Shown here one piece after another: positions 5,516 through 54,281 of a stretch of DNA of 64,000 bases (position 1 is its first letter; every line of letters begins with the position of its first letter). The position numbers and the translations under genes were made by a program. Below the pieces are notes generated by a model. The model was not told the origin of the DNA, did not search any database, and was given only the letters and a program-made list of their open reading frames with translations. Source of the stretch: a virus (taxonomy: Duplodnaviria > Heunggongvirae > Uroviricota > Caudoviricetes); IMG/VR virus record IMGVR_UViG_3300031143_000003, positions 83,287 to 147,286 of that record; one strand, given 5' to 3'.

Positions 5516-5562
5516 ATAATATAAATATCAATGTAATAGTTTAATGTATCAGCTATGTGAAC

Positions 5563-5766
5563 CTATATGTAATCGGATTGGTCCGTGAAGTGGCCATTTG
5601 TACAATAATACACATCAGAGAATTCACCTATTTCTGAATCTGTTAGATTGTGATCATCTATGATTTTTATCAATGTGTCGTCAGTTCGTATAAGTCTATA
5701 ATCTGACTCTGTGCATATGTACTTAGCACTTATTATATTATTAGCATTACATTCTATGCAATCCAT
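5563..5766 (-). CDS. Small Cys-rich hypothetical protein
   Basis: 67 aa with several Cys (CIECN...C...C). Packed between flanking genes. Confidence 0.4.
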   Translation of the reverse strand: MDCIECNANNIISAKYICTESDYRLIRTDDTLIKIIDDHNLTDSEIGEFSDVYYCTNGHFTDQSDYI

Positions 5767-5767
5767 A

Positions 5768-6583
5768 TTAACCTCCAGTAATTGTTATGTTGTCTAGACA
5801 TATATCGCCCTTATATGTTGTTCCAGATTTTGCGAAGAACCATACGTATACGCCAGCTGCATTGCCTGCAATATTGTTCAAGTCAATTTCAGCTTTTCTC
5901 CAATATCCTTGTGTAGATGTACTGGTATGTCCTGAAGTCTGCTGCTGGCCTGTTATCCGATCTGATGTCGTGGTAGCTGTCCCAGTGTTATTTGTCCAAT
6001 GTAATATGTCACATCCGCCACCAGTATCAGAAGTAAATCCAAATCCAGAATAAGATTCTACGGAACTATCTGCGCTGGTTGCACTATCTGTAATTGCTAC
6101 ACCCAATGATCCTATATTCGCACCATACATATGATACCAGAATTCCAACTTTAAGGTGCTATTTGCTGCGGCCGAAGATAGGTCTATCTCAGGAGTTCGC
6201 AATACAAATCGCTTATTATATTGGCCAGATGTTTCAGTATATATATATTTACTGGCAGCAGTTGTTGCTCCAGTTGTTAGTGATTCGTTCATACCGTATT
6301 TAGGCCCAGTATTAGATGACGGAGTTGTTCCACCTTCAATATCCCATTTCCGAGTTGAAGTCGTTGAACCATAGATTGTCGCAGCAATATTATTCAACCA
6401 ACCTGTTGGTGATACTCCATAGCCTTCGGATATGGCATTAAAGTTTTCCGATAGTAACGTTGCGCTTGATGCAGCTGGAATTGCTATTGCCGTCATATAG
6501 TATATGGAAGCTTTTGCTACACCAGATACTTTTGCAATAGTAGATATAGGGACGGCTGATACTTTCGCTATAAACGCTGGCAT
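5768..6583 (-). CDS. Putative virion/fibre-associated structural protein
   Basis: 271 aa, Ser/Thr/Gly-rich. Start overlaps the upstream fibre gene stop. Lies inside the fibre gene block. Confidence 0.5.
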   Translation of the reverse strand: MPAFIAKVSAVPISTIAKVSGVAKASIYYMTAIAIPAASSATLLSENFNAISEGYGVSPTGWLNNIAATIYGSTTSTRKWDIEGGTTPSSNTGPKYGMNESLTTGATTAASKYIYTETSGQYNKRFVLRTPEIDLSSAAANSTLKLEFWYHMYGANIGSLGVAITDSATSADSSVESYSGFGFTSDTGGGCDILHWTNNTGTATTTSDRITGQQQTSGHTSTSTQGYWRKAEIDLNNIAGNAAGVYVWFFAKSGTTYKGDICLDNITITGG

Positions 6584-8364
6584 TATGCTATCTCAATCCA
6601 AGTGTTATCAGGGCTAAAATATATTGGTGCAGTTGTACCTGTGCTATAACCAATTATTCTAACGACATCCCCGGTTGCAGTTGGTTTAGTTTTTGATAGT
6701 CCACCGGCTGTTGTGCTTAAGTATATAGGGACTCCGGGTTCGCCAGCTGGATTTGACGTTGGATGGATGAGACCGCTAACCAGCATACCATCAGCTAATG
6801 CACTTGTTCCTACGGCCATTCCTAACATTGTTGTTCCATAGTTGACTGTTGCTGATGCAGCATGCCATGTGCCAGAACCCTTTAGATAGTATATTCCGCC
6901 AGCTACTGTTGAACCAGTTGCGGTGTATATCACATTTCCTTGTGCGGGTCGATATGTTGCGTGCAGTGAAGTTGGAAGTAACACAGTTTGATCAACATCT
7001 AGGTTATTACCAATAATTGTGTCAGTGAATACTGCAAGGTCATTAAACGTTGCACGACCATTGAAAGTTGACCTCCCTTCAGTAGTAACATCACCATTAT
7101 TATTTATCGTCATTCGGACTGTATTATCTGTGCCAAACTGAATATCATTTGTTGTACTACCACTAATACCTATCAATAATGCGTTGGCAGTTGTACCAGA
7201 ATATGGTAAATCATTTGGAGCATCACCAGCGTCACCAACATGGCCAATATAACTACCAATTCCACCACCATCTTGACTAAGTTTTATATATGAATTCTTG
7301 GATTCATCATCATTATTTGGATCAGCTGCTATTGTTAATGATGCATTGCCGGTTGTTGTTGATACCACCAAGTTACCAGCTATTGTTTGATTTCCACTAG
7401 CTAATGCTGTTGCAGTTCCAGCGTTACCAGTAATCGACGTTTGATCGCCTGTATTTGTTCCACTTAAATTTGAACCAGCTAATGTACCACTTGCACTTAC
7501 GTGGCCAGAAGCTGTTACGTCACCATTCATAGTTATCGGATTTGCAGATTTACCTATCCGTATTGGCGTATTATTTTCATAACCTAAAGTCATAGCGGCA
7601 GCAGTATACATCCCAACTGGATGACCCTCAGAATAAAATCTGTCGGCAGATATATCGCCACTTGCACTTACATGACCAGAAGCTGTTATATCGCTTAACG
7701 AATTTATGCCGCCATACACTTTTAAACCTAGTCCTGCACTACTAGATATTATAGTTTCATTATCAGGTATCAGTGATAGGTCTTGATTTGCATATATTTC
7801 TAAGTCATCTGGCGTATCCGAATTAACCCCTATGTATGAGTTGGATGATCCTTCATGAAAAAGGACTCTATTGCTATTCATATTGAAATTGGACAATACA
7901 TCTATTGTTGCTACTGGCGAATATATCTTTGGATTAGTAGAAGTCCATGTACTACCACCCCTAAGTTCTATTCCCCTAGCTGATGGTCCTACGAATAACG
8001 AACCTGTGTTGAGACTGTCTCCAATAGATAATCCCTTAAGGACTATTGAATCTAAAGAATGCACAACGCCACTCGCGCTTATATTGCCAGAGGCTGTTAT
8101 ATTTCCAGTAAACGTATGCTCGTCTGATACTGAATCTCCGAATGCTGTAGATCCTGAGCTAAATGAAGTTGTCATGTGTGTTACTGATGATGATATAATA
8201 TAGTTTTCTGCTGTCAATGTTTCGACTGCAAAATTACTAGATACGCTCGAACCAGAACCATAGTATAACTTACCAGAATCTAAGTTTATTGCTAACTCGC
8301 CTTCTTCTAAGCTTGATGGAACGGAATTACCAGTTCCCCTTTTTATTCGTATTGTCTGTGACAT
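6583..8364 (-). CDS. Tail fibre-like protein (593 aa)
   Basis: Repeated ITASGN(V/I)SASG motifs shared with the 1261-aa and 390-aa proteins. N-terminal GSTAFGDSVSDEHTFTG module shared with the 390-aa protein. SD-like AAGGAAA lies 9 nt upstream. Confidence 0.65.
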   Translation of the reverse strand: MSQTIRIKRGTGNSVPSSLEEGELAINLDSGKLYYGSGSSVSSNFAVETLTAENYIISSSVTHMTTSFSSGSTAFGDSVSDEHTFTGNITASGNISASGVVHSLDSIVLKGLSIGDSLNTGSLFVGPSARGIELRGGSTWTSTNPKIYSPVATIDVLSNFNMNSNRVLFHEGSSNSYIGVNSDTPDDLEIYANQDLSLIPDNETIISSSAGLGLKVYGGINSLSDITASGHVSASGDISADRFYSEGHPVGMYTAAAMTLGYENNTPIRIGKSANPITMNGDVTASGHVSASGTLAGSNLSGTNTGDQTSITGNAGTATALASGNQTIAGNLVVSTTTGNASLTIAADPNNDDESKNSYIKLSQDGGGIGSYIGHVGDAGDAPNDLPYSGTTANALLIGISGSTTNDIQFGTDNTVRMTINNNGDVTTEGRSTFNGRATFNDLAVFTDTIIGNNLDVDQTVLLPTSLHATYRPAQGNVIYTATGSTVAGGIYYLKGSGTWHAASATVNYGTTMLGMAVGTSALADGMLVSGLIHPTSNPAGEPGVPIYLSTTAGGLSKTKPTATGDVVRIIGYSTGTTAPIYFSPDNTWIEIA

Positions 8365-8397
8365 ATTGTGTTTCCTTATGTATAAATATCAACGTTA

Positions 8398-12183: not shown

Positions 12184-12185
12184 AA

Positions 12186-12377: not shown

Positions 12378-12379
12378 AA

Positions 12380-18415: not shown

Positions 18416-18855
18416 TATTTTACAACCGTTGTGCCAACAACCCTAGTCTTAAGTGAGCTAGTGTTAACTGCTATTAATAAATATCTATTTACACCATTTT
18501 CTGCATTTGTATCAATACAATTATCATTTAGAATTAACCCATTTTGATATATTGTGTAGTTATTTGGATCAACCTCCGACCAACCATTTGATTTGTCCGA
18601 TAGGAATGTATAGTGGTCGTATGCAACTTCTGCCGATGCTGATAAGTGTATGTCTGATCCTATTAGTTCACCGCCAAAAGATATATCAGATGTTCCCTGA
18701 TTTGAGAATCCAGTTAGTGAACTACCGTTACCAATGAATGATCCAGATAACGTTCCATTGAAATCAACGGATCCTGTTACAATTACACCACTTATAAATT
18801 GTGCTGCTACACCTGCATGCTTAAATGAGCCTGAATATTCGAATCGACCAGGCAT
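18415..18855 (-). CDS. Short fibre-like protein sharing the N-terminal module of the 2011-aa protein
   Basis: 146 aa. GSVDFNGTLSGSFIGNGSSLTGF is paralogous to SLNVDGDINATTFIGDGSGLTGI of the 2011-aa protein. SD-like AGGAAA upstream. Confidence 0.55.
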   Translation of the reverse strand: MPGRFEYSGSFKHAGVAAQFISGVIVTGSVDFNGTLSGSFIGNGSSLTGFSNQGTSDISFGGELIGSDIHLSASAEVAYDHYTFLSDKSNGWSEVDPNNYTIYQNGLILNDNCIDTNAENGVNRYLLIAVNTSSLKTRVVGTTVVK

Positions 18856-20027: not shown

Positions 20028-20041
20028 AACTACCTATTATT

Positions 20042-20921: not shown

Positions 20922-20943
20922 ATATAAATATCACACATATTAA

Positions 20944-27117: not shown

Positions 27118-27178
27118 TGTGTCTCCAATATACCTACCCTAATCTACTTAGGATATCGTATATAAATATACAACATAC

Positions 27179-33356: not shown

Positions 33357-33372
33357 TAAAACTCCTTAATAT

Positions 33373-34449: not shown

Positions 34450-34458
34450 CTTTGTGTC

Positions 34459-35109: not shown

Positions 35110-35151
35110 TTTAATGTCCTATCTTGTGAATTCTTTATAATAAATATATGG

Positions 35152-39827: not shown

Positions 39828-39829
39828 TA

Positions 39830-40858: not shown

Positions 40859-40865
40859 GTTTGTC

Positions 40866-42728: not shown

Positions 42729-42730
42729 TA

Positions 42731-43518: not shown

Positions 43519-43578
43519 TGCTCACTCCTATGTTTATTATAAATATCTAATAGGATTGGTTTTAAGCTGTTTGCAATA

Positions 43579-44478: not shown

Positions 44479-44813
44479 TATTTGTCTTCCATTTCAGCTG
44501 CTGCATCTAATAGTTGTTTCTTTTCTTCAGGCGTCAATAATGTTCCACCACTAGCATTCGACGATGATCTGCCTTCTGCACGTTGAACTATTGCTGCCAT
44601 CTTAATCAAATGGTCGTCATTTTTAACTGCTACATCTAAGTAGTCTTTTATTATTGGCACTAATATTGTTGCATCTCCGATGTTCTTAATCATTGGTTGC
44701 AATTGCTTAATTAGTTCAGCTATTTGGGCTTCTTTTCGGATCGAATTATCATATATATTCTTCATTAATCCGGAAAATGTCTTACCCTCGAATATGTCAT
44801 CACCTTGTTCCAT
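44478..44813 (-). CDS. Hypothetical protein (111 aa)
   Basis: ORF preceded by SD AAAGGAA and, further upstream, a strong terminator. Confidence 0.45.
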   Translation of the reverse strand: MEQGDDIFEGKTFSGLMKNIYDNSIRKEAQIAELIKQLQPMIKNIGDATILVPIIKDYLDVAVKNDDHLIKMAAIVQRAEGRSSSNASGGTLLTPEEKKQLLDAAAEMEDK

Positions 44814-44848
44814 TGTACTGTTCCTTTGTTTAATATAAATATATGAAA

Positions 44849-44876
44849 CAAAAAAACCCCAATCAAAAGATTGGGG
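44849..44876 (-). terminator. Rho-independent terminator
   Basis: Stem CCCCAATC / loop AAAA / stem GATTGGGG at 44857-44876, followed on the minus strand by TTTTTTTG (A-run 44850-44856 on +). Lies just downstream of the 79-aa gene. Confidence 0.8.
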
Positions 44877-44906
44877 TTAATTATCAACAATATGTTGGTA
44901 TGTAAT

Positions 44907-45146
44907 CTATTTTTTAGTCTTCTTTGGGTTAGCAAAGAACGACATAACAACAACTAGTGTTACTAAGCCGACAAATCCGCCATTACCAATGTAACTAATG
45001 ATTGTGCTAATGTTTCCAATAACATCCATCCCAAAAACAACTCCTCCGGTTAAAACCTGAAATAAAATTGCAATTGGTAAAATTGACATAAGTAATCCGA
45101 ATAATCCAGATAAAAATCCTTCTGCGTACTTAAAAACGTAATCCAT
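44907..45146 (-). CDS. Small two-TM membrane protein
   Basis: 79 aa, hydrophobic throughout (LFGLLMSILPIAILFQVLTGGVVFG...LVTLVVVMSFF). Confidence 0.5.
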   Translation of the reverse strand: MDYVFKYAEGFLSGLFGLLMSILPIAILFQVLTGGVVFGMDVIGNISTIISYIGNGGFVGLVTLVVVMSFFANPKKTKK

Positions 45147-45214
45147 ATTATATTCTCCTTGTATTTATTGTTGGCAATATTGCCTATGATCGTTATATGT
45201 TACATAACAATGTT

Positions 45215-45997
45215 TTAACTAAGTTTGTCTTCATACATATTGTATTTTTCAATATATTCTTTCTTTATGATGTTAACAACCTTAGATATATCTTGTGTGC
45301 GTTCATTTGTCATTTCACGTATTAACAAATATAGCGCTTTCTTATTATATTTTTCAATGTTTTCACGTTGTTTAAACAATTCCAATATTGCATATGCTAT
45401 TCTACGCTCATACTGTTTAGTAAATATTGTTTCAACTTTTCGTTCATAATAATCTATAAACGTATCCATAAATTCTTTTATTGCAGCCAATCGTTCAGTA
45501 TTTCCAACTTCATTAACAATATTTCTATTTTTATCTATAGATAATACATCATCTTTAGTTTTCAATCTAGCGTATGCTTTATTATTTGTTTGAATGCAAT
45601 AATTTTTTGCAACAATACTAAAATATGAAAATGCTTTACCTTTTTCAGCTGTAAATTTATTCAATTTTTGTAAAACAAATCCCATAACTTCATATTGCTT
45701 ATCTTCAGTTGTTCCATCCATATATGGAAATCTAAACCTATTAATTATATTTTGCGTTAACTTCCACATTGAATAATGTATGTGTGCGTTATATAATCTG
45801 TCACGTTTAATTTTTGATGGTTCAATATTATATGCGATAATTGCTTTTTCAGTTATTGGCGTAAAATACATTTTATTTTTACGCTTTCTACCTCTACGAA
45901 CAACGTTTGGATTTAATAATATCTCCAATTCTTCTTCGTACATTGGTAAATTGTCATAAAATATATCGACTGGACTCTTACTCATCATTACTTCCAT
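45215..45997 (-). CDS. Late-transcription sigma factor, T4 gp55-like
   Basis: 260 aa. Region WKLTQNIINRFRFPY...KAFSYFSIVAKNYCIQTNNKAYARLK parallels T4 gp55 KRFNFSGY...[23 protein letters not shown] (sigma region 2-like). Confidence 0.5.
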   Translation of the reverse strand: MEVMMSKSPVDIFYDNLPMYEEELEILLNPNVVRRGRKRKNKMYFTPITEKAIIAYNIEPSKIKRDRLYNAHIHYSMWKLTQNIINRFRFPYMDGTTEDKQYEVMGFVLQKLNKFTAEKGKAFSYFSIVAKNYCIQTNNKAYARLKTKDDVLSIDKNRNIVNEVGNTERLAAIKEFMDTFIDYYERKVETIFTKQYERRIAYAILELFKQRENIEKYNKKALYLLIREMTNERTQDISKVVNIIKKEYIEKYNMYEDKLS

Positions 45998-46247
45998 ATA
46001 TTGCCTCTAAGCCATTAATTTCATCTTTAATTGCATCAAATATTTGTCCTACCTCATCATCACTAGCGAATCCACCCTTTGAATCAATTTCTCTTAGATT
46101 ATCAAACGTATTATTTAAGTTTAATAAAATAGATTTTTGTTCAAGTTCAATTTGTTCAACCGTATCTTGTGATTGGTCAAACTTTCGAATTAGGTTTATA
46201 ACAACTAATGTAAGTATTAGTATAATGGTACATAACATATATTCCAT
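45978..46247 (-). CDS. Small membrane protein (N-terminal TM)
   Basis: 89 aa. N-terminus MEYMLCTIILILTLVVINLI is hydrophobic. Confidence 0.45.
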   Translation of the reverse strand: MEYMLCTIILILTLVVINLIRKFDQSQDTVEQIELEQKSILLNLNNTFDNLREIDSKGGFASDDEVGQIFDAIKDEINGLEAIYGSNDE

Positions 46248-47038
46248 TATGAGTCTCCGAATAACCCCTTAAACAGTTCCTGTGCATCCGATTCTGATGT
46301 AGATACTTTTCCAGTAACCTTCTTAGGTTTATGAGCTGTGGCTGCTACTGCTGACTTTTGTGTATTTGTCATACTTGCTGTAACACCCTGATTAGATTTC
46401 CAATGTTCGTATTCAATTTGGCTAGCCATATGGTCAGCATGATGTAATAATAATGGCATATGGTTGTGCATTTTTCTATGCTTGTCATATGATTTAAAGT
46501 ATGAAACGTTTCCATCGTCATACATTCCATCGTGTATCATTATTGCAATCATTTCATTTTGAGAGTATTTGATATTGAAGTTCTGTAATAACCATAAACT
46601 TCTATGTGGTACTGACATATTCTGGATTTCAGGATTGATGTCATATATTTTACCTTGATTTTTTCTGTGCCAATCTGATGGATTTGGTACATAGTAATCA
46701 TTAAGTAAATCTCCGACCTTTCCTAAATCATGATTCAATGCTGCAAATAATAGTTCTTCGCGACTATAACCAGTAACATTTGCACCCATACTACTCCATG
46801 CACCATGTAATTTAATAGAACAATTTAATACCCGTAATACATGATCTACATATCCACCAGCAAAGCAATTATGATAATGTTCTATTCCTGATGCAGGAGC
46901 AGCAATCATTCGCTCTTCTAATGTTTCATACATGTGCTTGATATTATCTCGCCTTGTACCACTAAATTCAGTATCTATAACTGTCATTAGTCTGTTCCAA
47001 TTTTCTAATAAGTTTTCTTCGTTTGTCTTCATAACCAT
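46247..47038 (-). CDS. HD-domain metal-dependent phosphohydrolase
   Basis: 263 aa. H..H...NHDLGK...MIHDGMYDD...HHADHM motifs. Confidence 0.6.
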   Translation of the reverse strand: MVMKTNEENLLENWNRLMTVIDTEFSGTRRDNIKHMYETLEERMIAAPASGIEHYHNCFAGGYVDHVLRVLNCSIKLHGAWSSMGANVTGYSREELLFAALNHDLGKVGDLLNDYYVPNPSDWHRKNQGKIYDINPEIQNMSVPHRSLWLLQNFNIKYSQNEMIAIMIHDGMYDDGNVSYFKSYDKHRKMHNHMPLLLHHADHMASQIEYEHWKSNQGVTASMTNTQKSAVAATAHKPKKVTGKVSTSESDAQELFKGLFGDS

Positions 47039-47475
47039 TTTTTTACTTTATTCCAATATTTGATTGTTGCGCTTTTCTTATATCCTCTCGGACCACCATT
47101 CCAGGCTCTAGCAATTTCTTCAGATGTATCTAAACCATAATGCTCAATGTATATGTTAAACATTTCAATTGATTTTAATCTATTCCATCTGTCTTTATAT
47201 TTGTATCTGTGTTGCTTGCGCTGAGTCTTTAATATCCTATTGATATCTCTTACCATTGTTCGCCTAATTTGCATACAACCTACAGCGTCTTCTACTTTAC
47301 AATATGCAGAATCATTATTTGAAGATTCTACGAATATTATTGCATTAGCTAAACTTGGAATGTCAAGTTCAACCACTGTTATATGAATCTGTTCTAATTT
47401 AATCGGAACAATTTCAATATCAGCGGTTGGATAAGTAAATGCAAATAATGGAAAGATAAACAATAATTTTTTCAT
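47029..47475 (-). CDS. Lytic transglycosylase (SLT-domain) with signal peptide; endolysin/cell-wall enzyme candidate
   Basis: 148 aa. Signal peptide MKKLLFIFPLFAFTYPTA. SLT motifs ESSNNDSAY...GCMQI and AWNGGPRGY (compare ES...GLMQI and AYNAGPG). Confidence 0.6.
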   Translation of the reverse strand: MKKLLFIFPLFAFTYPTADIEIVPIKLEQIHITVVELDIPSLANAIIFVESSNNDSAYCKVEDAVGCMQIRRTMVRDINRILKTQRKQHRYKYKDRWNRLKSIEMFNIYIEHYGLDTSEEIARAWNGGPRGYKKSATIKYWNKVKKWL

Positions 47476-47476
47476 A

Positions 47477-47698
47477 TTAATCGAATAAAATTTGTAATTG
47501 CTTGATGTTGCCTTTTTCAGTATCGTTTCCGAAATGAGTATCGACCAATGATGTACTATAGCCTAAAGCATATGCCAGTCGTTTACAGGTTCGCTTGAAT
47601 TCAGTTATTGATAAGTCGTTACTTACCGCAAATTCAATTCGTTGCGCTTCCTTTGATAATGAACCACGTACATATACTAATTTATCATATTCCATCAA
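47477..47698 (-). CDS. Hypothetical protein (73 aa)
   Basis: ORF downstream of a conserved intergenic element. Confidence 0.4.
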   Translation of the reverse strand: MMEYDKLVYVRGSLSKEAQRIEFAVSNDLSITEFKRTCKRLAYALGYSTSLVDTHFGNDTEKGNIKQLQILFD

Positions 47699-47758
47699 TT
47701 TTCCTCGTTGTATTTTTTGTTATAGCTAAATATAAGAAAAAAAATTGACATAAAAAAA
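47699..47758 (-). promoter_or_regulatory. Conserved intergenic element (type 2: aaatataag ... ttgacat ... ttattc)
   Basis: ttgttatagctaaatataagaaaaaaaattgacataaaaaaattattc. Confidence 0.45.
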
Positions 47759-48286
47759 TTATTCAGCAAAAAGTTTTTCTTTGAATCCTTCTGGGAATTT
47801 TCCAACGGCTATTCTAGAAAAATATTTTATTTCTGCTTGAACTATTTTCTTATCTTTTTTCCAACGAAGTGTTGCCAGTTTTTTCTTTAACTTGCTTATT
47901 TTTAGGGCAGCCTCATATTTGTATCTGTCCTTTTCTTTCTTGGATAACCTAACTTTTGGCGCTATGACTGTTTTATCAAGTGTACCCTTAAGATCAGGTT
48001 GTTCAGTTCCCTTATGATAAACTGTACCATCACCGTGAACGTAAACCGCCATCCAGTGCCATCCAGCAGGTTTTTTATCTTCTTGACGTTTATGTTGAGA
48101 TGTTTCTGGTGGATCAACCATATCAGCGACACAATGTTGGCATGTTACTGCAGTTGCGTTCTCTCCAACTCTGTCATATCCGCCACATAGTTTACATTCC
48201 ATATATTTGTATAATCTATCCGGACTTTCGTTCCATCTGGTACCAGGCTTGTAATATGAATCGTATGTATTTTCTTCGTTTGCCAT
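47759..48286 (-). CDS. Zinc-ribbon protein with Lys-rich C-terminus (175 aa)
   Basis: CKLCGG...CQHC followed by KK-rich tail. Confidence 0.45.
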   Translation of the reverse strand: MANEENTYDSYYKPGTRWNESPDRLYKYMECKLCGGYDRVGENATAVTCQHCVADMVDPPETSQHKRQEDKKPAGWHWMAVYVHGDGTVYHKGTEQPDLKGTLDKTVIAPKVRLSKKEKDRYKYEAALKISKLKKKLATLRWKKDKKIVQAEIKYFSRIAVGKFPEGFKEKLFAE

Positions 48287-48474
48287 AACTATTTCCTATT
48301 GTTTATTTTATTTTAAATATAGTGAAATTATTAGTTATATTTAATTTCACTACAGCCATTGATTAACAATGAAGCTGATCCATGTTCCGAATTGTTCCCA
48401 TTGATCACAAATTTTGCTGTAAGCCACATTTCGGGATGCAGATGATACTTTACCTACAATTTCCCTAGGAGTTT

Positions 48475-49329
48475 TCAATTCCAGCTAATGGGGATATGTT
48501 TTTGTGATGAATCATATATCAAACTGTATATGATACCTTGTCCGGATGGATTTGGTTTTTGTCTAATCGACATATCAATTATGCCGTTTTGCGCAAACTT
48601 TATCTGTAAATTAGTTAGTTTGGTCAAATTGGTGTGACTTATGATTGTATATTTATCAAGATACGATATTACAATATTGTCATGATAATTAATTTCTTCA
48701 GATGAATCTGCGTAGTTGTCTATGATATCATCTGTAATTTGTTCGTGTTCTATATTATTGTATAGAGGTTGATCTGGTATTAATGGTCCATCGTCTAATA
48801 ATCGTTCGATGTAATCATCTCGTGTTTTTTTATCAAGTAATTCTGCCCATTTACAAAATGCAACAATATCACCGTTGAATATAGATTTATCAGCATCTGA
48901 TAATATGCTCCATATTTCAAGGTCAGTAACATCGTTAAGCTTATTATCTATTGTGCTAGCTTGTGCGATTAGCTGGTCAATTGATTGCATATCAGGTTGA
49001 ATATCTGGTATATCTTCAGTTCCATAATATGGTTCGTCAATTACCAATTCAGCGATAATTGCTTCATGTTCAGGTTCATTATTTATTAGTTTGAATATTT
49101 TTGCGCATCGCTCATATTCTTCGGTAACTTCATAATGATCCAACATATCGCGTAATATATCAACAAACTCTAATTTGTCTAGGCTATATGGATCATATAA
49201 TGTTGGTACTTCAACTTCAGACGAATTCATCAACATTTCAATACTCATTTCACCAATAAATAGTAAATATGTTGTATCAAATGCCGCATTAATAAATTCA
49301 GTGTCGTCTATTTGTTCTTCGCTGTTCAT
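48475..49329 (-). CDS. Acidic hypothetical protein (284 aa)
   Basis: Long ORF, very D/E-rich. Confidence 0.45.
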   Translation of the reverse strand: MNSEEQIDDTEFINAAFDTTYLLFIGEMSIEMLMNSSEVEVPTLYDPYSLDKLEFVDILRDMLDHYEVTEEYERCAKIFKLINNEPEHEAIIAELVIDEPYYGTEDIPDIQPDMQSIDQLIAQASTIDNKLNDVTDLEIWSILSDADKSIFNGDIVAFCKWAELLDKKTRDDYIERLLDDGPLIPDQPLYNNIEHEQITDDIIDNYADSSEEINYHDNIVISYLDKYTIISHTNLTKLTNLQIKFAQNGIIDMSIRQKPNPSGQGIIYSLIYDSSQKHIPISWN

Positions 49330-49392
49330 ATGTATGATATAATATGTTTAATGTAAATTAATAGACCAGTTGTCTTGATCTATTATAAATAT

Positions 49393-49418
49393 AAGGGCTC
49401 AAATTAAATTGAGCCCTT
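49393..49418 (-). terminator. Stable hairpin, possible terminator
   Basis: AAGGGCTCAA-ATTAAA-TTGAGCCCTT, a 10-bp perfect stem, between the 49595 gene cluster and the 48475 gene. Followed on the minus strand by A/U-rich ATATTTATAATAG. Confidence 0.5.
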
Positions 49419-49450
49419 ATACACATACAAAAATTATTTCTACCGGAGGG

Positions 49451-49591
49451 TTAGTCCTTCTTATTCAACTCCTTCCTTAACAAGTCATTAATAAGTAATT
49501 TATCACCCAATCGAGTTTTAATGCGTCGATTTAATACGTAATGTATTGCGGTTACAACTGTTGCACCTACAATTAGTCCTAATATAAACAT
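49451..49591 (-). CDS. Small TM peptide (46 aa), below the ORF-track threshold
   Basis: MFILGLIVGATVVTAIHYVLNRRIKTRLGDKLLINDLLRKELNKKD. ATG lies 4 nt after the upstream stop. Confidence 0.35.
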   Translation of the reverse strand: MFILGLIVGATVVTAIHYVLNRRIKTRLGDKLLINDLLRKELNKKD

Positions 49592-49594
49592 ATA

Positions 49595-49891
49595 TTAGCC
49601 TCTATACGTTCCAGTACCTGACTCCAATTGTCCCATTCTCTTGGCGACATTATATTGTGTCTGAGCATCCATTAATGTTTCCATTATCTTATTTGACTCT
49701 GTAAACGTAATTTCAACTCGTTTGCCTGCAATTAATAGAGTACCAATAATTGGTTGAGTAGCTGGAGCAATTGGATGTAATGCTTTAGGTCCATGTGCTA
49801 GTTCAAAATCTATTGTTGCCCATGTTTTACCATACTTTGAAGGGTTAAATTTTGACTGATGATCTACGTTGGTTTTGAATGTCTTTGACAT
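49595..49891 (-). CDS. Hypothetical protein (98 aa)
   Basis: First ORF after the long AT-rich intergenic region. Confidence 0.45.
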   Translation of the reverse strand: MSKTFKTNVDHQSKFNPSKYGKTWATIDFELAHGPKALHPIAPATQPIIGTLLIAGKRVEITFTESNKIMETLMDAQTQYNVAKRMGQLESGTGTYRG

Positions 49892-50093
49892 AGTTTAATT
49901 GTTTTGGTTTGATTGTTAATTTGAATTATTGATTGTAATTACAGCGAAGCTGTATTTATTAATATATTATTTTCAGATATATTAATGTTATTAGGATATT
50001 AATAGATATTATATAATAACTAGTAATAAATAATTATGTTGTAAATATATTAATATTTTTTGACTCGGTAAAATGTTTTTCAACTTATTTTCA
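49892..50093 (-). promoter_or_regulatory. ~200-bp AT-rich intergenic region with reiterated ATATTAAT-like motifs (promoter cluster or origin candidate)
   Basis: Largest non-coding gap in the window. Repeated tatattaat / gatattaata / aatatattaata motifs. Confidence 0.4.
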
Positions 50094-50327
50094 TTATTTT
50101 GTTGAATTATTTTCAAATAGGTAGGCATCAATGTATATATGAATCAAATGACGCTTGTCTTCAATGGTCAATTGCTTTTCCATGATCTCTCCAATATACC
50201 TAGATTCATTGTCGCACATTATAATTGTTTCAGACATCGTATATAGATTTGATATTCCTTCAGCACCATTGATTGTCCAAGCACATTTGATTGTATCAAT
50301 ATTGATATATTGTTTGTTTGCACCCAT
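50094..50327 (-). CDS. Hypothetical protein (77 aa)
   Basis: ORF in the early-gene block. Confidence 0.4.
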   Translation of the reverse strand: MGANKQYINIDTIKCAWTINGAEGISNLYTMSETIIMCDNESRYIGEIMEKQLTIEDKRHLIHIYIDAYLFENNSTK

Positions 50328-50328
50328 A

Positions 50329-50772
50329 TTATTTTGTTTTTCCGTCTATAAAACGTTGTTGTTTCTTAATAGCTAAATCTAAATCAGTTTGTTTACGCTT
50401 ACGTGGAACAGCTTTCTTTAATACAATTGTCGCAGAAGATTTAACGGAAGGTTTCTTTTTGAGTTTTTTACGCTTAGATGGCTTAGCCTTAACTGTTGTA
50501 TAATTAGATCCATACTTACACGATTTAATTAATTGGCCATTTGCCGATATTATTCTAGCCTCTCCGACGCATGGGTACACCATGTAGCCCCGGATATCCC
50601 CGTTATTTATAACTGTAATAGTATATATCATTGCAGAGAAGTCAGTCGGGATATGATCCCAGTTATCTCCAGCGTAACCTATGCGAGTAACCTCACCGTA
50701 CCTAATGGTACCATCCATATATCTAAATTGAACATCGTCTCCGATTTTGTATTTGTGACTGCGTTTCCTCAT
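50329..50772 (-). CDS. Hypothetical protein with basic C-terminus (147 aa)
   Basis: ORF with KPSKRKKLKKKPS tail. Confidence 0.45.
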   Translation of the reverse strand: MRKRSHKYKIGDDVQFRYMDGTIRYGEVTRIGYAGDNWDHIPTDFSAMIYTITVINNGDIRGYMVYPCVGEARIISANGQLIKSCKYGSNYTTVKAKPSKRKKLKKKPSVKSSATIVLKKAVPRKRKQTDLDLAIKKQQRFIDGKTK

Positions 50773-50783
50773 ATTGATATGAT

Positions 50784-51233
50784 TTAGTTGGTTGCTAATA
50801 TATTAACGTGATCTACAACTGATGTCCAGTCTGGGAATTGATCAGTGCCAAAGTGGATTAGTTTTCCACTAAAATCTCCAGCTCCATTCCAAGTGTGATC
50901 GTCGATTAGTATGTCTCCGATCAATAGATCTTTTCTATGTGTCAATATTAATTTTTTTCTAAATTGTGGAAAGTGATCTGCTACCCATAATCGCTTTTGC
51001 GTCCAAGCATTTGGGTTATCCCAAGGAGCCGTAGAAGCGATCAACAGGTCATGACCGGAATCAAGTAAAGCTTGAACAGCTAACTTAGCTCCGGGTATAG
51101 GTTGTAATATCGAAAAATCGAGGTCTAAATCTGGACAATGTCCATCCCCTGTAAAGTTTGGGTGAGCTGATGCGAGTAATGCAAAATCTGCCAATACACC
51201 ATCTAGGTCAATGAATATTCGTAATTTGGTCAT
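50784..51233 (-). CDS. HAD-superfamily 5'(3')-deoxyribonucleotidase-like protein
   Basis: 149 aa. IFIDLDGVLADF matches the DxDGVLADF motif of NT5C-type deoxyribonucleotidases. Confidence 0.65.
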   Translation of the reverse strand: MTKLRIFIDLDGVLADFALLASAHPNFTGDGHCPDLDLDFSILQPIPGAKLAVQALLDSGHDLLIASTAPWDNPNAWTQKRLWVADHFPQFRKKLILTHRKDLLIGDILIDDHTWNGAGDFSGKLIHFGTDQFPDWTSVVDHVNILATN

Positions 51234-51268
51234 TTGTTATTTGTTATTTGTTATTTGTTATTTGTTAT
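51234..51268 (-). repeat. Heptanucleotide tandem repeat (TTGTTAT)x5 immediately 5' of the nucleotidase start codon
   Basis: ttgttat repeated five times at 51234-51268. It appears to be an expansion of the tttgtttaatttgttat part of the conserved intergenic element. Confidence 0.9.
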
Positions 51269-51348
51269 TTATAGTTAAATATAATCATAATCGATTAACC
51301 CGGAAAATAAATTTAACATTATTTTCAAAAGTTATTAACAATTTCTAT

Positions 51349-51699
51349 TTAACTGTGCATTTGATCGACTAGCATAATTAATCGTTTCTTTGCATCAGCG
51401 AGATCGGAAATAAGGATTTTTCTAATGTAGTATTCTAAATCGGTCTCCAATATGCTAGAGTATGCTCTAATTCTGTCTCGAGTAAATGCGATATCTTTAC
51501 ATAACATATCATGCATAATATCAGCGTCTAATTTATCGTTGGTTTCCGCTTGAATCGGAAGCTGATCCGAATCGTCAGCTAATTGCTGTATAAGCGCCTC
51601 TGATCGATCGCTAAAATACCGTTCAATTGATGTTGAGTCCAATGCACTCCAATGAGCCATTATAAATTCAGATGTGTTTGATTCTGTATTGTTTTCCAT
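51349..51699 (-). CDS. Hypothetical protein
   Basis: The track ORF 51349..51738 begins inside the conserved intergenic element (MLIFTYNQSNKPT). The start is reassigned to MENNTES. Confidence 0.45.
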   Translation of the reverse strand: MENNTESNTSEFIMAHWSALDSTSIERYFSDRSEALIQQLADDSDQLPIQAETNDKLDADIMHDMLCKDIAFTRDRIRAYSSILETDLEYYIRKILISDLADAKKRLIMLVDQMHS

Positions 51700-51794
51700 A
51701 GTAGGTTTGTTTGATTGGTTATAAGTAAATATAAGCATAATAATTTAACCGGAACAATCTTGGACTGTTTATTTTCAAAAGTTATTAACAATCT
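51700..51794 (-). promoter_or_regulatory. Conserved ~90-bp intergenic element (type 1: ...ttataagtaaatataagcat...aaccggaacaatc...ttattttcaaaagttattaacaat)
   Basis: One of at least 12 near-identical copies. This copy and those at 52828, 57009, 57729 and 60661 (51234-51345 also resembles the type-1 pattern) share the same two halves. Confidence 0.55.
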
Positions 51795-52208
51795 CTATTT
51801 GTCAAAATGATCTCGAGAGAGCTCTTCTATTCTATACTTAGCATGGCTTATAACCGATGAGGCTTTCCTATGGTGTTCTGCTACCTCTACTACGTTTTCA
51901 AGTTCCTCTGTAAGCATTTCTCTTACATACTGGTCTACGTATATTTTAACTAAGTAACTATGGAGCTCTTTAGCTTCAGTTGAAGTCGATGGCTGGTGTA
52001 TTGTATTTAATAACCTGTCATGCAATATATTCCGTTTATTTCCCTTTAGCCTATAGAAGAGGTTCCATCCAGCTTCTATGTCTTCTACATGCATTATTAC
52101 ACTATACTCTGCTAAGTATTCATCTAGAGATATCTGATTATCCATACGGTATGTCTGATCCCATTTGATCATTAGCTCTATAGCTTCTTCGTGTATATCT
52201 ATCGCCAT
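51795..52208 (-). CDS. Hypothetical protein (137 aa)
   Basis: ORF preceded by the AACTAAAACAAGACTAAG-ATG leader motif. Confidence 0.45.
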   Translation of the reverse strand: MAIDIHEEAIELMIKWDQTYRMDNQISLDEYLAEYSVIMHVEDIEAGWNLFYRLKGNKRNILHDRLLNTIHQPSTSTEAKELHSYLVKIYVDQYVREMLTEELENVVEVAEHHRKASSVISHAKYRIEELSRDHFDK

Positions 52209-52219
52209 CTTAGTCTTGT

Positions 52220-52435
52220 TTAGTATCCGTAATTAATTTTAATTGAAAGTGCTTCATTCTTACCTTCCTCACCAAAGGATTCCATTACTTCAATAGCAAT
52301 ATCGGTGTCTAGTTGACATATAATACTTGATACGCCACTTAAAAACGAATCCTTATTCTTTATTTCGTGCTCTTGAAGTAAATCGTTTAGCTCCATTGTA
52401 ATTGTATTTATCTTTCCTAGTCTTTCTCTATCCAT
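52220..52435 (-). CDS. Hypothetical protein (71 aa)
   Basis: ORF with the same conserved leader motif. Confidence 0.4.
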   Translation of the reverse strand: MDRERLGKINTITMELNDLLQEHEIKNKDSFLSGVSSIICQLDTDIAIEVMESFGEEGKNEALSIKINYGY

Positions 52436-52436
52436 C

Positions 52437-52655
52437 TTACTCTTGTTTTAGTTCTTTGATTCTATTTTTAAGATTATCTGATAGGTAGGTTTCTACTTCT
52501 TGATTAAAGTAATTTTCTAATTGCTTCTCCAACTCTTCTATTACTCGCTTGTTAGTAAGCTCCTTAATACGAACATCAATCAGTCTAGCTAAATCATTAG
52601 CTAATCGTTTTGGTACTAGACTTAATAAATTCGCTAATAGTATTTCAGTACTCAT
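52437..52655 (-). CDS. Hypothetical protein (72 aa), paralogue of the partial gene at the right window edge
   Basis: C-terminal NRIKELKQE matches ...NQRIKELKQD of the ORF fragment at 63899-64000. Confidence 0.4.
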   Translation of the reverse strand: MSTEILLANLLSLVPKRLANDLARLIDVRIKELTNKRVIEELEKQLENYFNQEVETYLSDNLKNRIKELKQE

Positions 52656-52656
52656 C

Positions 52657-52827
52657 TTAGTCTTGTTTTAGTTTGTTGAATCTATTTATAAAGTAGTAGT
52701 TTATCTCTCCACTATCATCTATAAGCTGGTAAACATCTTCGTCCAATGCAATTACATTGTACTTTGAACCTAATGTCAAATGGTTCTTCCATACGCCTGG
52801 ATCTATGCATTCTACAATTATCATCAT
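52657..52827 (-). CDS. Hypothetical small protein
   Basis: The track ORF 52657..52866 starts in the conserved element (MLIFNYNKLNKPI). Start reassigned to MMIIVEC. Confidence 0.4.
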   Translation of the reverse strand: MMIIVECIDPGVWKNHLTLGSKYNVIALDEDVYQLIDDSGEINYYFINRFNKLKQD

Positions 52828-52922
52828 AATAGGTTTGTTTAATTTGTTATAGTTAAATATAAGCATTATTCTTTAACCGGAACAATCCTATGTGATTATT
52901 TTCAATAAGTTATTAACAATTT
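52828..52922 (-). promoter_or_regulatory. Conserved intergenic element, type 1
   Basis: ggtttgtttaatttgttatagttaaatataagcattattctttaaccggaacaatcctatgtgattattttcaataagttattaacaat. Confidence 0.55.
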
Positions 52923-53285
52923 CTAACGATCACTGCGTTTGAGTATTTGTTTCAGAATAGCCCGATCTGCCATAGATTCAATTAGGTCAGATTCATCTCC
53001 CAATATTGCATGATCCCGGCCTAGTTTATATGCCGGCAAATATTCATCTGCAATAAATTTGATGTTTGCATCTGCCCAACCCCATAATTCGTCGTGCCAA
53101 CCTTGTCCGTACCAATCTAATAATATCTTTTCATCTTGTGTCATAGTTTTGTCCGTGTTAGTTTGTTGTTTTTTAATGCAATTTTCACATAAAACTGCGT
53201 TATGTAATCCTCTACCGATAATGCAGCGACATTGGTTACATAATGTAGCGCCATACCCGTTGTTGAATTTATGTATTGCTTTCAT
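52923..53285 (-). CDS. Cys-rich zinc-binding hypothetical protein (120 aa)
   Basis: CNQCRC...CENC. Confidence 0.45.
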   Translation of the reverse strand: MKAIHKFNNGYGATLCNQCRCIIGRGLHNAVLCENCIKKQQTNTDKTMTQDEKILLDWYGQGWHDELWGWADANIKFIADEYLPAYKLGRDHAILGDESDLIESMADRAILKQILKRSDR

Positions 53286-53303
53286 ATTGAATGTCTATTA
53301 ATG

Positions 53304-53765
53304 TTAAAATGAACCAGGAGCGACTTGCATAACCGTTAATCCTCTATCTCTCCACATTTTCACGACCTTATCGCGATCATCGAATATACATAGTACATCA
53401 GATTGATTTGGAAATTTAGCGTCGAACCAATCTGATTTGAGCTTATCGTCGGGTGTGAATGAATTTAGTGGTCTCATTGTGATACTGTCAAATGGTACAT
53501 TGAATTTATCAAGCCATTTTGTTGTAGTGTCCTTTGTTCCAGTACATCGACCAGAAAATATCGCAATATTGAAACCTTGTGATTTGAGTGTTTGTGCCAT
53601 GATTATGACTGGATTATTGGGCTTATCCATTTGGATATTATTTGGATCAAAAAACTTAGTCCAATTAATCTTCCCATTGTCCTTTGTGCTAAAGGATCGT
53701 CGATCATCAATAAGTGCTAGGGTGCCATCTAGATCGAAAATTACCCATTTGTTTGAATTGCTCAT
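53304..53765 (-). CDS. Polynucleotide 3'-phosphatase, homologue of the T4 Pnk C-terminal HAD phosphatase domain (stand-alone)
   Basis: 153 aa. VIFDLDGTLA (DxDGT). IAIFSGRCTGTKDTTTKWL versus T4 VVVSGRESGTKEDPTKYY. C-terminus IFDDRDKVVKMWRDRGLTVMQVAPGSF versus T4 [27 protein letters not shown]. Confidence 0.85.
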   Translation of the reverse strand: MSNSNKWVIFDLDGTLALIDDRRSFSTKDNGKINWTKFFDPNNIQMDKPNNPVIIMAQTLKSQGFNIAIFSGRCTGTKDTTTKWLDKFNVPFDSITMRPLNSFTPDDKLKSDWFDAKFPNQSDVLCIFDDRDKVVKMWRDRGLTVMQVAPGSF

Positions 53766-53833
53766 AGTTGATATGTTTAATTGTTATAAGTAAATATAAG
53801 CAATTAAAATGACATAAAAAAATATTATATCAA

Positions 53834-54232
53834 CTATTTTATAATTAATATATTTGCCAATTCGATGGCCTTAAGGTACTGGCCATTTTCATCTTCAACT
53901 GTCCAAAAAACAATTGACTTTTCCTCATGGAATATACAAATTTTGGATTTATCTCCGTCTGTTATGTAACAGTCATATGCATCATCGCATTCTGGAATCA
54001 ATACCCACCAAGTATGAATAATCTCGGTATCGTTTAACATTACTTCTATGTACTCTTCGTGGATTGTAAATGCAACTTCAGATTTGAATGATTCATCTAA
54101 TTGATAAGCCATACCATTCCAATCATACAGGTTGGTCACATCTGATATATAGGTTGTCTGTGCGGTACATACTGTCGATAATAACATGAATATACATAAT
54201 GCCGCCTTAATCTTTTTCATCTTTTGCTCCAT
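53834..54232 (-). CDS. Secreted hypothetical protein (signal peptide)
   Basis: 132 aa. N-terminal MKKIKAALCIFMLLSTVCTAQ. Confidence 0.5.
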   Translation of the reverse strand: MEQKMKKIKAALCIFMLLSTVCTAQTTYISDVTNLYDWNGMAYQLDESFKSEVAFTIHEEYIEVMLNDTEIIHTWWVLIPECDDAYDCYITDGDKSKICIFHEEKSIVFWTVEDENGQYLKAIELANILIIK

Positions 54233-54281
54233 GGTTTAAATCTGTTCATTAATAAATATACATGGTGCTAATTATTGTTGA

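Follow-up and report, generated by a model that had tools for sequence, protein, structure and literature searches.

A candidate late promoter motif, the reverse complement of the T4 late octamer, in a phage family encoding a predicted gp55-like sigma factor

Late promoters of phage T4 consist of the octamer TATAAATA at positions -13 to -6, which gp55 recognizes together with gp33 and the gp45 sliding clamp. The window analyzed here, a 64-kb stretch of phage DNA, raises the question of what directs late transcription when that octamer recurs in front of structural genes but on the plus strand, opposite to the coding (minus) strand. The original prediction had offered three readings of these elements: a variant late promoter, an A/U-rich translational enhancer, and antisense promoters. 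Our analysis favors the first and disfavors the other two. We propose that ATATTTAT(A/T), with the family-wide core TATTTAT, probably serves this phage and many marine relatives as the late promoter and that its probable reader is a phage sigma factor, a distant relative of gp55.

Distribution of the motif in the window

All nine sites that had been listed are present, each with ATATTTAT on the minus strand (5528-5521, 8389-8382, 20931-20924, and 27169-27162, followed by 35147-35140, 43546-43539, 44842-44835, 49392-49385, and 54259-54252). The centers given for them were off by 0 to 10 nt, the worst being 35133 (vs 35143.5) and 27160 (vs 27165.5). The motif had been placed 0 to 55 nt upstream of the ATG, in agreement with the 2 to 55 nt measured; in the above order, the called ATG lies 5, 17, 2, 44, 30, 20, 21, 55, and 19 nt past the 8-mer. 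The list was nevertheless incomplete, since sites at 814, 18484, and 57217 had been missed.

Preceded by TTG, the 9-mer ATATTTATA lies at 5520..5528, only 4 nt from the first ATG of gene 5515-4811, whose real start may be a later in-frame ATG, and at 8381..8389, where AAGGAA stands in the 16 nt that precede the ATG of gene 8364-6583. A copy preceded by GTG (20923..20931) abuts the ATG at 20921; that gene more probably starts at a second in-frame ATG, some 24 nt further on. Further copies of ATATTTATA are found at 27161..27169, 43 nt from the ATG of gene 27117-25144; at 44834..44842, 20 nt from that of gene 44813-44478; and at 49384..49392, 54 nt from that of gene 49329-48475. The copy at 43538..43546, preceded by TAG and 19 nt from the ATG of gene 43518-43156, forms the head of a baseplate operon (gp25-like gene 43156-42731 and gp6-like gene 42728-40866). 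The form ATATTTATT occurs at 35139..35147, 29 nt from the ATG of gene 35109-34459, and at 54251..54259, right after a tRNA-Met gene (54282-54356) and 18 nt from the ATG of gene 54232-53834. Two copies within coding sequences are also near gene starts (43 to 62 nt upstream): ATATTTATA at 806..814, in the 3' end of CDS 1153-773 and ~41 to 43 nt 5' of the ATG at 764, and ATATTTATT at 18476..18484, within CDS 18855-18415 and ~60 to 62 nt 5' of the ATG of the 2011-aa gene 18415-12380. The gene with its ATG at 764 extends past the window edge. The status of ATATTTATA at 57209..57217 is uncertain, as the 200 nt downstream are gene-free. All of these sites are on the minus strand. The late genes headed by the motif include the baseplate operon and large tail-fiber-like genes; PHROG annotation of the genes downstream gave little besides baseplate wedge proteins and one ATPase/kinase-like protein, and an Rfam scan of the window detected two tRNAs and nothing else.

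Matches to ATATTTATA number 11 in the window, compared with 4.3 +/- 1.9 in shuffled sequences, and 11/11 are on the minus strand. On the coding strand, ATATTTAT is concentrated in intergenic DNA, with 11 copies in 3,429 nt vs 4 in 60,571 nt of coding sequence, and of those 4, the copy at 57776 in fact lies between genes, as the ORF start at that place had been called wrongly. The opposite strand has no intergenic copy. Base frequencies predict ~0.8 intergenic copies, so the claimed excess over AT composition is borne out. An unbiased 8-mer scan of the late region ranked ATATTTAT first, with 8 of 10 copies falling within 760 intergenic positions (p=1.4e-13). Words that differ from the 9-mer at one base, which were left out of the site count, show no link to gene starts in the window; the motif is therefore a specific word rather than a reflection of overall AT-richness. 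The T4 octamer does occur on the plus strand, as had been noted, yet TATAAATA itself is not over-represented in the window (18 vs 13.0 +/- 3.7), and its plus-strand copies are merely the opposite strand of the late motif.

Conservation of the motif in related phages

For comparison, 83 related loci (1.0 Mb) were gathered with the sigma-like protein as the query. Among them, ATATTTAT is the top coding-strand intergenic 8-mer, with 171 of 312 copies in 4.9% of positions (p=5e-136), whereas 18 of the 103 copies of its reverse complement are intergenic. Of the 172 late-side gaps that are 25 nt or longer, 112 contain the core TATTTAT; shuffled sequences gave 13.3 +/- 3.4 such gaps, and the reverse complement occurs in 33. 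This enrichment persists down to 34% sigma identity, and the motif is conserved in every relative examined. AT-rich DNA (the window has 36% G+C, and its intergenic DNA 72% A+T) could be expected to yield such a word by chance, but the counts in the window and in the family refute this explanation, to which we give practically no credence. Across 143 late-side sites, information content is limited to A-TATTTAT-W, and the profile contains neither a -35 element nor an extended -10 "TG" upstream of the motif.

In Flavobacterium phage immuto, whose genome is annotated, coding-strand TATTTATA lies 4 to 68 nt 5' of the terminase, portal, tail sheath, tail completion, baseplate hub, tape measure, and tail fiber genes. 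All 11 coding-strand copies in a 50-kb stretch of this genome are intergenic, 10 of them 4 to 68 nt from the next start and one at 133 nt, as are 4/4 in the next stretch. Where the gap before the gene that follows the sigma cluster could be compared among orthologs (the window, related loci L002 and L003, and immuto), TATTTATA is the sole conserved block. In phage Mel-JY01, the gap orthologous to that of 35139..35147 carries ACATATTTATTT. A megablast search with positions 43000-47500 of the window against phage genomes gave no match. A literature search on the motif, Flavobacterium phage late promoters, and Immutovirus, with most subscription journals outside its coverage, found no description.

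The family data also bear on the suggestion that the plus-strand octamer, (T/A)ATAAATA, is the functional element, an antisense late promoter directing transcription away from the genes. The plus strand matches the T4-like consensus NATAAATA perfectly, including an A/T ambiguity at the equivalent of -13 as in T4-like phages (PMC1524935), so an antisense promoter also fits the sequence, and the structure predicted for the encoded sigma-like protein is nearest to that of gp55. However, coding capacity on that strand is 12 kb in the family, compared with 946 kb on the other, the sites track coding-strand gene starts and nothing on the opposite strand, and unbiased k-mer scans gave no alternative late promoter candidate. 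Occurrences of TATAAATA on the coding strand are limited to a box that follows early promoters and to a single orthologous site in one subclade. Moreover, the early promoters hold the same core in sense orientation, and the sense register retains the adenines that gp55 buries, A-12 and A-8 (see below). We therefore regard antisense promoters as highly improbable.

Early promoters and the host sigma factor

The window contains a second promoter class, composed of a -7 box, TATATTTA, and a -33 region. One such early-type (host sigma-A-like) promoter, TTTTTTTATGTCAATTTTTTTTCTTATATTTAGCTATAAC, has its ATATTTA core at 47727..47733 on the minus strand, upstream of the operon with the sigma gene. Two copies of ATATTTATA, at 57048..57056 and 57768-57776 (both minus strand), belong to this early class and not to the late one, as they lie in the two copies of a ~75-bp repeated early promoter (...TTCCGGTTGGGAAAATATTGCTTATATTTATACTATAAATAAC). 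The early promoters of Mel-JY01 have the form TTG-N19-TA(A/T)(G/A)TTTG, and those of immuto have the form GTTGC-N19/20-TATATTTAG. The class approximately fits the Bacteroidota sigma-A plan (-33 TTTG / -7 TAnnTTTG), in which the -7 consensus is TAnnTTTG and G-5 is nearly invariant (PMC6847099). The E. coli-type sigma-70 consensus (-35 TTGACA and -10 TATAAT, 16 to 18 nt apart) is not enriched in 43000-58000 (76 vs 81.8 +/- 10.7 in shuffled sequences).

Could the late motif itself be a degenerate Bacteroidota -7 box, used by host RNA polymerase with its primary sigma factor and perhaps a phage activator, while the sigma-like ORF serves otherwise? The core ATATTTA is common to the late motif and the early promoters in the same orientation, the early promoters resemble the Bacteroidota consensus, two of them include the full ATATTTATA (57056 and 57776), and the sigma-like protein is tied to the sites by co-occurrence only, part of which stems from the use of this protein as the query in gathering the related loci. 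Several features nevertheless speak against a host promoter. (i) The late sites have neither the conserved upstream region or -33 element of the early class nor G-5 and thus depart from the Bacteroidota sigma-A plan. (ii) In immuto, TATTTATA is frequently preceded by C, so that a -7 box in that register would lose its TA. (iii) In Mel-JY01, the early promoters have true TAnnTTTG boxes but the late site reads ATATTTATT, and two distinct promoter classes are therefore indicated. (iv) Cellulophaga phage phi38:1, a Flavobacteriia phage of another family that served as a control, shows no enrichment of ATATTTAT; 50 kb of its sequence contain 6 copies, of which 2 are intergenic. On balance, recognition by the host sigma factor is unlikely.

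Terminators and translation signals around the motif

The sigma operon is closed by a predicted intrinsic terminator, the hairpin AACCCCAATCTTTTGATTGGGGTT (44855..44878, minus strand) followed by a T-run (44854-44850), and the late motif at 44842 begins 7 nt later. Likewise, the motif at 49392 starts 2 nt beyond the hairpin GGGCTCAATTTAATTTGAGCCC (49416-49395). A terminator is predicted in 64 late-side gaps of the family, and in 46 of these the motif stands between it and the ATG. If the terminator works, a promoter is needed in the short interval to the ATG, and the motif is the only conserved element there.

The distance from motif to ATG has a mode of 15 to 19 nt and a median of 20 nt. Such fairly tight spacing would also be expected of a translation-related element, and for a promoter it would imply very short leaders. 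The motif might thus be an A/U-rich translational enhancer or ribosome standby site in the 5' leader rather than a promoter; it is composed of A/U only, and Bacteroidota use A-rich leaders instead of Shine-Dalgarno pairing (PMC6847099). Against this, the motif is confined to operon starts, with the many translationally coupled late genes lacking it, and it is an exact, strand-specific word whose one-mismatch variants are not linked to starts. Distances range from 2 to more than 60 nt, and some copies lie within the upstream coding sequence. The motif comes right after terminators, at a place that calls for a promoter and holds no other conserved element, and many late genes of the window already have GGAG-type ribosome-binding sites between motif and ATG. 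A purely translational role is thus very unlikely.

The sigma-like protein

The candidate late sigma factor is a 260-aa protein encoded at 45215..45997 (minus strand), the penultimate gene in the operon that starts from the early-type promoter with its core at 47733. The original prediction called it gp55-like. This holds for its predicted structure, which has the sigma region-2 homology domain, with a fold nearest to that of T4 gp55. Comparisons with Pfam, PHROGs, HMMER, and PDB sequence profiles gave no meaningful match, and the protein departs from the gp55 plan (~185 aa, no region 4, and a C-terminal clamp-binding tail). Its C-terminal 110 residues are helical, with no clear structural assignment. 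An hhalign comparison with gp55 gave an E value of 0.006 but a probability of 6%, with 89 collinear columns at 25% identity (family columns 57-151 corresponding to gp55 residues 27-120). The assignment as a sigma factor is based on the predicted structure and this low-probability alignment. Approximately 4,500 metagenomic relatives exist, mostly marine, all unannotated and none with a Pfam domain.

In gp55, A-12 is stacked on Y97, A-8 is bonded to T99, and A-9 is contacted by H95 (PMC7892883). Placed in the T4 register, the late motif reads T-13 A-12 T-11 T-10 T-9 A-8 T-7 A-6 and hence retains A-12 and A-8 but alters A-9. The low-confidence hhalign alignment, on which the pocket argument depends, pairs Y97 with Y125, T99 with S127, R57 with R87, F86 with F115, and L54 with I84, while H95 faces F123; the residues from F123 to S127 are invariant across the family. 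The reverse-complement relation to TATAAATA might also be no coincidence, if the gp55-like sigma reads the ancestral octamer in inverted polarity, e.g., on the template strand. In that case, the same DNA word would drive transcription in the direction opposite to that in T4. This is disfavored because the sense register keeps both deep-pocket adenines and the putative pocket residues, and we give it only a slim chance.

Searches by tblastn for T4 gp45, gp44, and gp62 in the window, ~95% of immuto, and 40 kb of Mel-JY01, which are of low sensitivity, gave chance matches (E > 0.9), and queries with T4 rpbA and gp55 likewise had no match in the window, immuto, or Mel-JY01. Since no clamp or clamp-loader homolog (gp45, gp44, or gp62) was found in these searches and the immuto DNA polymerase belongs to family A, clamp-coupled activation seems unlikely. 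A possible gp33 analog, the 89-aa ORF whose translation is coupled to that of the sigma gene, was rejected because its N terminus is a hydrophobic, membrane-like segment.

A model for late transcription

In the model that we prefer, host RNA polymerase with the host primary sigma factor would use the early promoters (-33 region and TATATTTA -7 box), and the one at 47733 would drive the operon containing the sigma-like gene (45215-45997). The 260-aa protein would then steer the host core polymerase to ATATTTAT elements. Each late (structural) transcription unit would begin at such an element, which would function like a -10 box, unaccompanied by a -35 element and oriented in the direction of the genes. 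By analogy with T4, transcription would start ~6 nt past the octamer, giving leaders of ~10 to 15 nt that carry the ribosome-binding site.

The putative sigma factor and the motif would yield a regulatory map, both simple and testable, for a phage group that is large and abundant and probably infects Bacteroidota: early genes would depend on host-type promoters and late genes on ATATTTAT(A/T), making late operons predictable from sequence alone. Direct tests are feasible with a cultured member, Flavobacterium phage immuto (vB_FspM_immuto) on Flavobacterium sp. LMO8.

Comparison with known systems

T4 late promoters are a close parallel. In both systems, a single A/T-only, -10-like element of 8 to 9 bp without a -35 lies directly 5' of structural genes, here in a myovirus whose portal, capsid, sheath, and baseplate genes are T4-like, and both phages encode a sigma factor with a gp55-like region-2 fold (predicted in the present case). 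In the same orientation, the octamers agree at 6/8 positions, including A-12 and A-8, the deep-pocket bases of gp55. They differ in the two central bases (TATTTATA vs TATAAATA), and it is this change that makes the motif the exact reverse complement of the T4 octamer; the coding strand thus does not carry the (T/A)ATAAATA of a T4-type promoter. The sigma-like protein also differs, at 260 aa vs 185 aa for gp55, with an extra C-terminal helical domain and no similarity to gp55 detectable by HMMER or Pfam. Template-strand reading, as in gp226 of the phage AR9 non-virion RNA polymerase, bears only on inverted polarity; AR9 encodes a multisubunit polymerase, whereas no phage RNA polymerase is apparent in the present family.

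Drift of the octamer alongside a diverged gp55 has precedents in Aeromonas phage Aeh1 (CTAAATA) and in RB49, KVP40, and S-PM2 (NATAAATA) (PMC1524935), but there the 5' edge is altered and the TAAATA core kept, while here the center is altered (TTTATA). With Bacteroidota primary-sigma promoters, whose plan the phage early promoters follow, the late motif has the T-rich core ATATTTA in common; it differs in having no -33/upstream element or G at -5 and in its obligatory T(A/T) extension. If our assignment is correct, gp55-type "-10-only" late transcription would extend to a host phylum with unusual promoters and an unusual sigma factor, apparently without the T4 clamp, and the pair would offer a natural specificity variant (central AA to TT, H95 to F) for study of the region-2 pockets that read single-stranded DNA.

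Genome organization

All credible genes of the window (G+C content, 36%) lie on the minus strand. Small genes are numerous between 64 kb and about 49.5 kb, a region that also holds two tRNA genes (tRNA-Met, 54282-54356; tRNA-Leu, 60764-60857) and has long intergenic gaps; at lower coordinates the genes are big and densely packed, and they include those for gp25-like and gp6-like baseplate wedge proteins and for proteins of 1,000 to 2,000 amino acids. Three long early-region gaps on the minus strand (61723-61537, 187 nt; 59903-59499, 405 nt; 57279-57009, 271 nt) contain GC-rich, possibly structured segments. Rfam at the gathering threshold detected nothing in the window beyond the two tRNAs, and a tRNA-like or tmRNA-like stretch exists in the equivalent region of L002, a related locus.

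A megablast comparison of positions 43000-47500 with the phage genome collection found no close relative. By protein similarity, the nearest cultured relatives are Flavobacterium phage vB_FspM_immuto (genus Immutovirus, 160 kb; here, immuto) and “Microcystis” phage Mel-JY01, and an uncultured 484-kb phage is also among the nearest relatives. The window and immuto are syntenic around the baseplate genes and around the gene (45215-45997, minus strand) for a 260-residue sigma-like protein. The immuto homolog of this protein is immuto35A_152 (QQO92070.1), and the phage infects Flavobacterium sp. LMO8. Among the immuto genes, those for the portal (gp20), major capsid protein (gp23), prohead protease, terminase, and tail sheath are T4-like. 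Between 18 and 37 kb, immuto also has a complete 7-deazaguanine DNA-modification set (QueC, QueD, QueE, QueF, FolE, and DpdA) together with GroES and GroEL genes; modified DNA could influence promoter reading in this phage family.

The late motif and its conservation

The original prediction described a recurrent motif 0 to 55 nt before the ATG of at least nine minus-strand genes, far in excess of intergenic expectation. All nine listed sites are present, 0 to 10 nt from their predicted centers and 2 to 55 nt upstream of called start codons, and the excess was borne out by counting: ATATTTAT has 11 intergenic copies, compared with about 0.8 predicted by composition. On the coding strand, these 11 copies in 3,429 intergenic nt stand against 4 in 60,571 coding nt, and the noncoding strand has no intergenic copy. 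The 9-mer form, ATATTTATA, matches 11 times, always on the minus strand (4.3 ± 1.9 expected over both strands). In an unbiased scan of late-region 8-mers, none was more strongly enriched between genes than ATATTTAT (8 of 10 copies intergenic; p = 1.4e-13). One-mismatch variants showed no association with gene starts in the window. Three copies are truly within coding sequences, two of them 43 and 62 nt before the next gene start (814 and 18484). The motif precedes late operons on the minus strand at 49392, 44842, 43546, 35147, 27169, 20931, 18484, 8389, 5528, and 814, with further minus-strand copies at 54259 and, as an orphan, at 57217.

Loci encoding the sigma-like protein were collected from 3 long contigs and 80 viral contigs (83 loci, 1.0 Mb), in which coding occupies 946 kb on the sigma strand versus 12 kb on the other. 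Across these loci ATATTTAT is the top intergenic 8-mer, with 171 of 312 copies in the 4.9% of positions that are intergenic (p = 5e-136), and TATTTATA ranks second; for the reverse complement, ATAAATAT, the figure is 18 of 103. Of the 172 gaps that are 25 nt or longer on the late side of the sigma-like gene, 112 contain the core TATTTAT, versus 13.3 ± 3.4 after shuffling, and 33 contain its reverse complement. The late-side sites (n = 143) give the consensus A-TATTTAT-(A/T), with A before the core in 123 of them and, after it, A in 78 and T in 55; they contain no -35 information.

In immuto, coding-strand TATTTATA is intergenic in 11 of 11 cases at 98-148 kb and in 4 of 4 at 148-160 kb, lying 4 to 68 nt (mostly 10 to 19 nt; 133 nt in one case) upstream of terminase, portal, sheath, tail completion, hub, tape measure, and fiber genes, and only 5 such sites exist in the 50-kb replication and nucleotide-metabolism region. 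The gap before the first gene past the sigma cluster has a single block in common among the window, L002, L003, and immuto, namely TATTTATA; in L004 the gap contains TACTTATA. The motif was not enriched in a control from a different family, Cellulophaga phage phi38:1 (Pervagoviridae). One subclade (L047, L049, L051, L055, L058, L059, L061, L063, L070-L072, L074, and L076) has a conserved late-side intergenic block, AAAAAAATCAATGAGTA-TATAAATA-TATATCCCTATTTTTT, in which TATAAATA, present at one orthologous site, is the genuine T4 octamer in coding-strand orientation. In L059, L072, and L074, CCACCTTTATTTGTTGAGTAATCC follows the terminator in place of the usual motif.

A second putative promoter class sharing the core

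Alignment of every coding-strand ATATTTA of the window separated two classes. In the late-motif class the upstream sequence is not conserved. The early class, by contrast, has strong upstream conservation and A, C, or G after the core; its approximately 16 members lie at 47-62 kb, upstream of small genes. The repeated early element spans about 75 bp, TTGAAAATAA...TTTT...TGTCAA...TT(A)TGCTT-ATATTTA-(A/C)nTATAAC/AAATTAAAC, and either TGTCAA or TTCCGG precedes TGCTTATATTTA(A/C)nTATAAC/AAATTAAAC. Coding-strand cores are at 61568, 60693, 60332, 59880, 59541, 58721, 57776, 57056, 53797, 52860, 51732, 51282, 50048, and 47733, with partial elements at 48320 and 31232; the full 9-mer occurs within two of these promoters (57056 and 57776). 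Some of the elements include a TTGTTCCGGTTAAA box. The ORFs called mechanically at 60699, 60350, 57804, 52866, and 51738 begin at an ATG inside an early promoter and are probably too long.

Early promoters of immuto (GTTGC-N19/20-TATATTTAGGTATCAATAATTAAAAC, ahead of dozens of small genes) and of Mel-JY01 (TTG-N19-TA(A/T)(G/A)TTTG) match the plan of the Bacteroidota primary-sigma promoter, with TTG(TTTG) at -33, TAnnTTTG at -7, and a start 4 to 5 nt past the box (PMC6847099). By this pattern, the early class consists of host-type early promoters. The nearest relatives of the Mel-JY01 locus (PP395634, 138815-179480) are Flavobacterium phages, and its early promoters are of the sigma-A type. Its cyanobacterial host label looks doubtful, and the host may be a Bacteroidota companion within the culture.

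The two gene classes also differ in translation signals. Shine-Dalgarno (SD)-like tetramers (GGAG, GAGG, and AGGA) at -18 to -4 precede 19 of 34 late genes (1-49.5 kb) versus 1 of 33 early genes (49.5-64 kb) in the window, and 43% versus 19% in the family; early-gene leaders are A/C-rich, e.g., AACTAAAACAAGACTAAG. SD pairing is not normally used by Bacteroidota (PMC6847099), and immuto late genes have no SD-like sites. The contrast points to translation initiation that switches between gene classes, or to a host unlike typical Flavobacteriia.

Orientation of the proposed late promoter

The motif is restricted to operon starts and is absent before translationally coupled late genes. Of 64 late-side gaps predicted to hold a terminator (hairpin and T-run), 46 have the motif between terminator and ATG. 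In the window, a terminator (44878-44855) is followed by a T-run, by the motif 7 nt past it, and by the ATG 20 nt past the motif; a hairpin likewise adjoins the motif at 49392. If these terminators are functional, initiation must fall within the short terminator-ATG interval, which has no conserved element besides the motif, and unbiased k-mer scans of the window late region and of the 83 loci found no other candidate late element. The core has the identical orientation in early promoters, where orientation is fixed by the -33 regions and the downstream genes, and the antisense strand offers nothing to transcribe. Motif-to-ATG spacing at late-side sites has a mode of 15 to 19 nt (median, 20 nt); if transcription began as in T4, about 6 nt beyond the octamer, leaders would measure roughly 10 to 15 nt, short but workable, into which the GGAG-type sites of the window phage's late genes fit. 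Together, these features argue for a promoter in sense orientation.

Nevertheless, TATTTATA is the exact reverse complement of T4 TATAAATA, and the family consensus, W-ATAAATA-T on the plus strand, shows at -13 the very A/T ambiguity described in T4-like phages (PMC1524935), as would suit a motif that is antisense or of inverted polarity. We consider that reading very improbable. The two octamers also share 6 of their 8 bases when both are read in the same orientation (TAT-nn-ATA); in light of the gene context, the reverse-complement relation is treated as a consequence of the near-symmetry of A/T words. A divergent late promoter, the first alternative of the original prediction, is the best explanation of the motif and a probable one, its promoter function being deduced from position, conservation, and terminator layout.

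The sigma-like protein

A gp55-like sigma factor had been proposed at 45215-45997. The ORF has no Pfam, PHROG, or PDB sequence match. Its product has 4,498 database relatives, mostly from marine metagenomes, all of which lack Pfam domains and informative names. An AlphaFold2 model built from 44 homologs (pLDDT, 85) gave weak Foldseek matches, nearly all of them sigma factors, and hhalign aligned family columns 57-151 with T4 gp55 27-120 (89 collinear columns, 25% identity, E = 0.006, probability only 6%). gp55 reads the non-template strand, with A-12 (stacked on Y97), A-9 (N13 and H95), and A-8 (hydrogen bonded to T99) in pockets (PMC7892883). The weak alignment pairs Y97/Y125, T99/S127, R57/R87, and F86/F115 (gp55/sigma-like protein) and sets H95 opposite F123; F123-S124-Y125-F126-S127 is invariant across the family. 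In T4 register the motif reads T-13 A-12 T-11 T-10 T-9 A-8 T-7 A-6, with both deep-pocket adenines (A-12 and A-8) retained; A-9 and the residue paired with its contact H95 would both have changed, a suggestive pattern that depends on the weak alignment.

Directly 3' of the sigma gene and before a small gene (45146-44907) lies a perfect inverted repeat, GGCAATATTGCC (about 45174-45185, minus strand), which could serve as an operator or form an RNA hairpin; its position is conserved in L002 (GGCAATTTTGCC) and L003 (GCCAATATTGGC and GGTAATATTGCCC). An 89-residue ORF (45978-46247, minus strand) overlaps the start of the sigma gene, with synteny kept in L002-L004 and immuto. Its product, with a hydrophobic N terminus and an acidic C terminus, could act together with the sigma factor or regulate it.

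Comparison with known systems

The late motif is undescribed in the literature searched, the coverage of which was incomplete. The finding yields a regulatory rule that can be put to use, together with a candidate late sigma factor, in a very large set of uncharacterized marine phages. Like the T4 late promoter, the motif would act as a -10-only element before structural genes, putatively dependent on a phage sigma factor. However, it lacks the defining T4 sequence, TATAAATA on the coding strand, the sigma-like protein differs from gp55 in size and architecture, and the gp33 and gp45 dependence of T4 is unsupported here. Its center, TT instead of the AA of T4, is shifted toward the T-rich Bacteroidota -7 box. 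The motif is also distinct from the Bacteroidota sigma-A promoter. Conceptually, the late motif and its candidate sigma factor extend the T4 paradigm.
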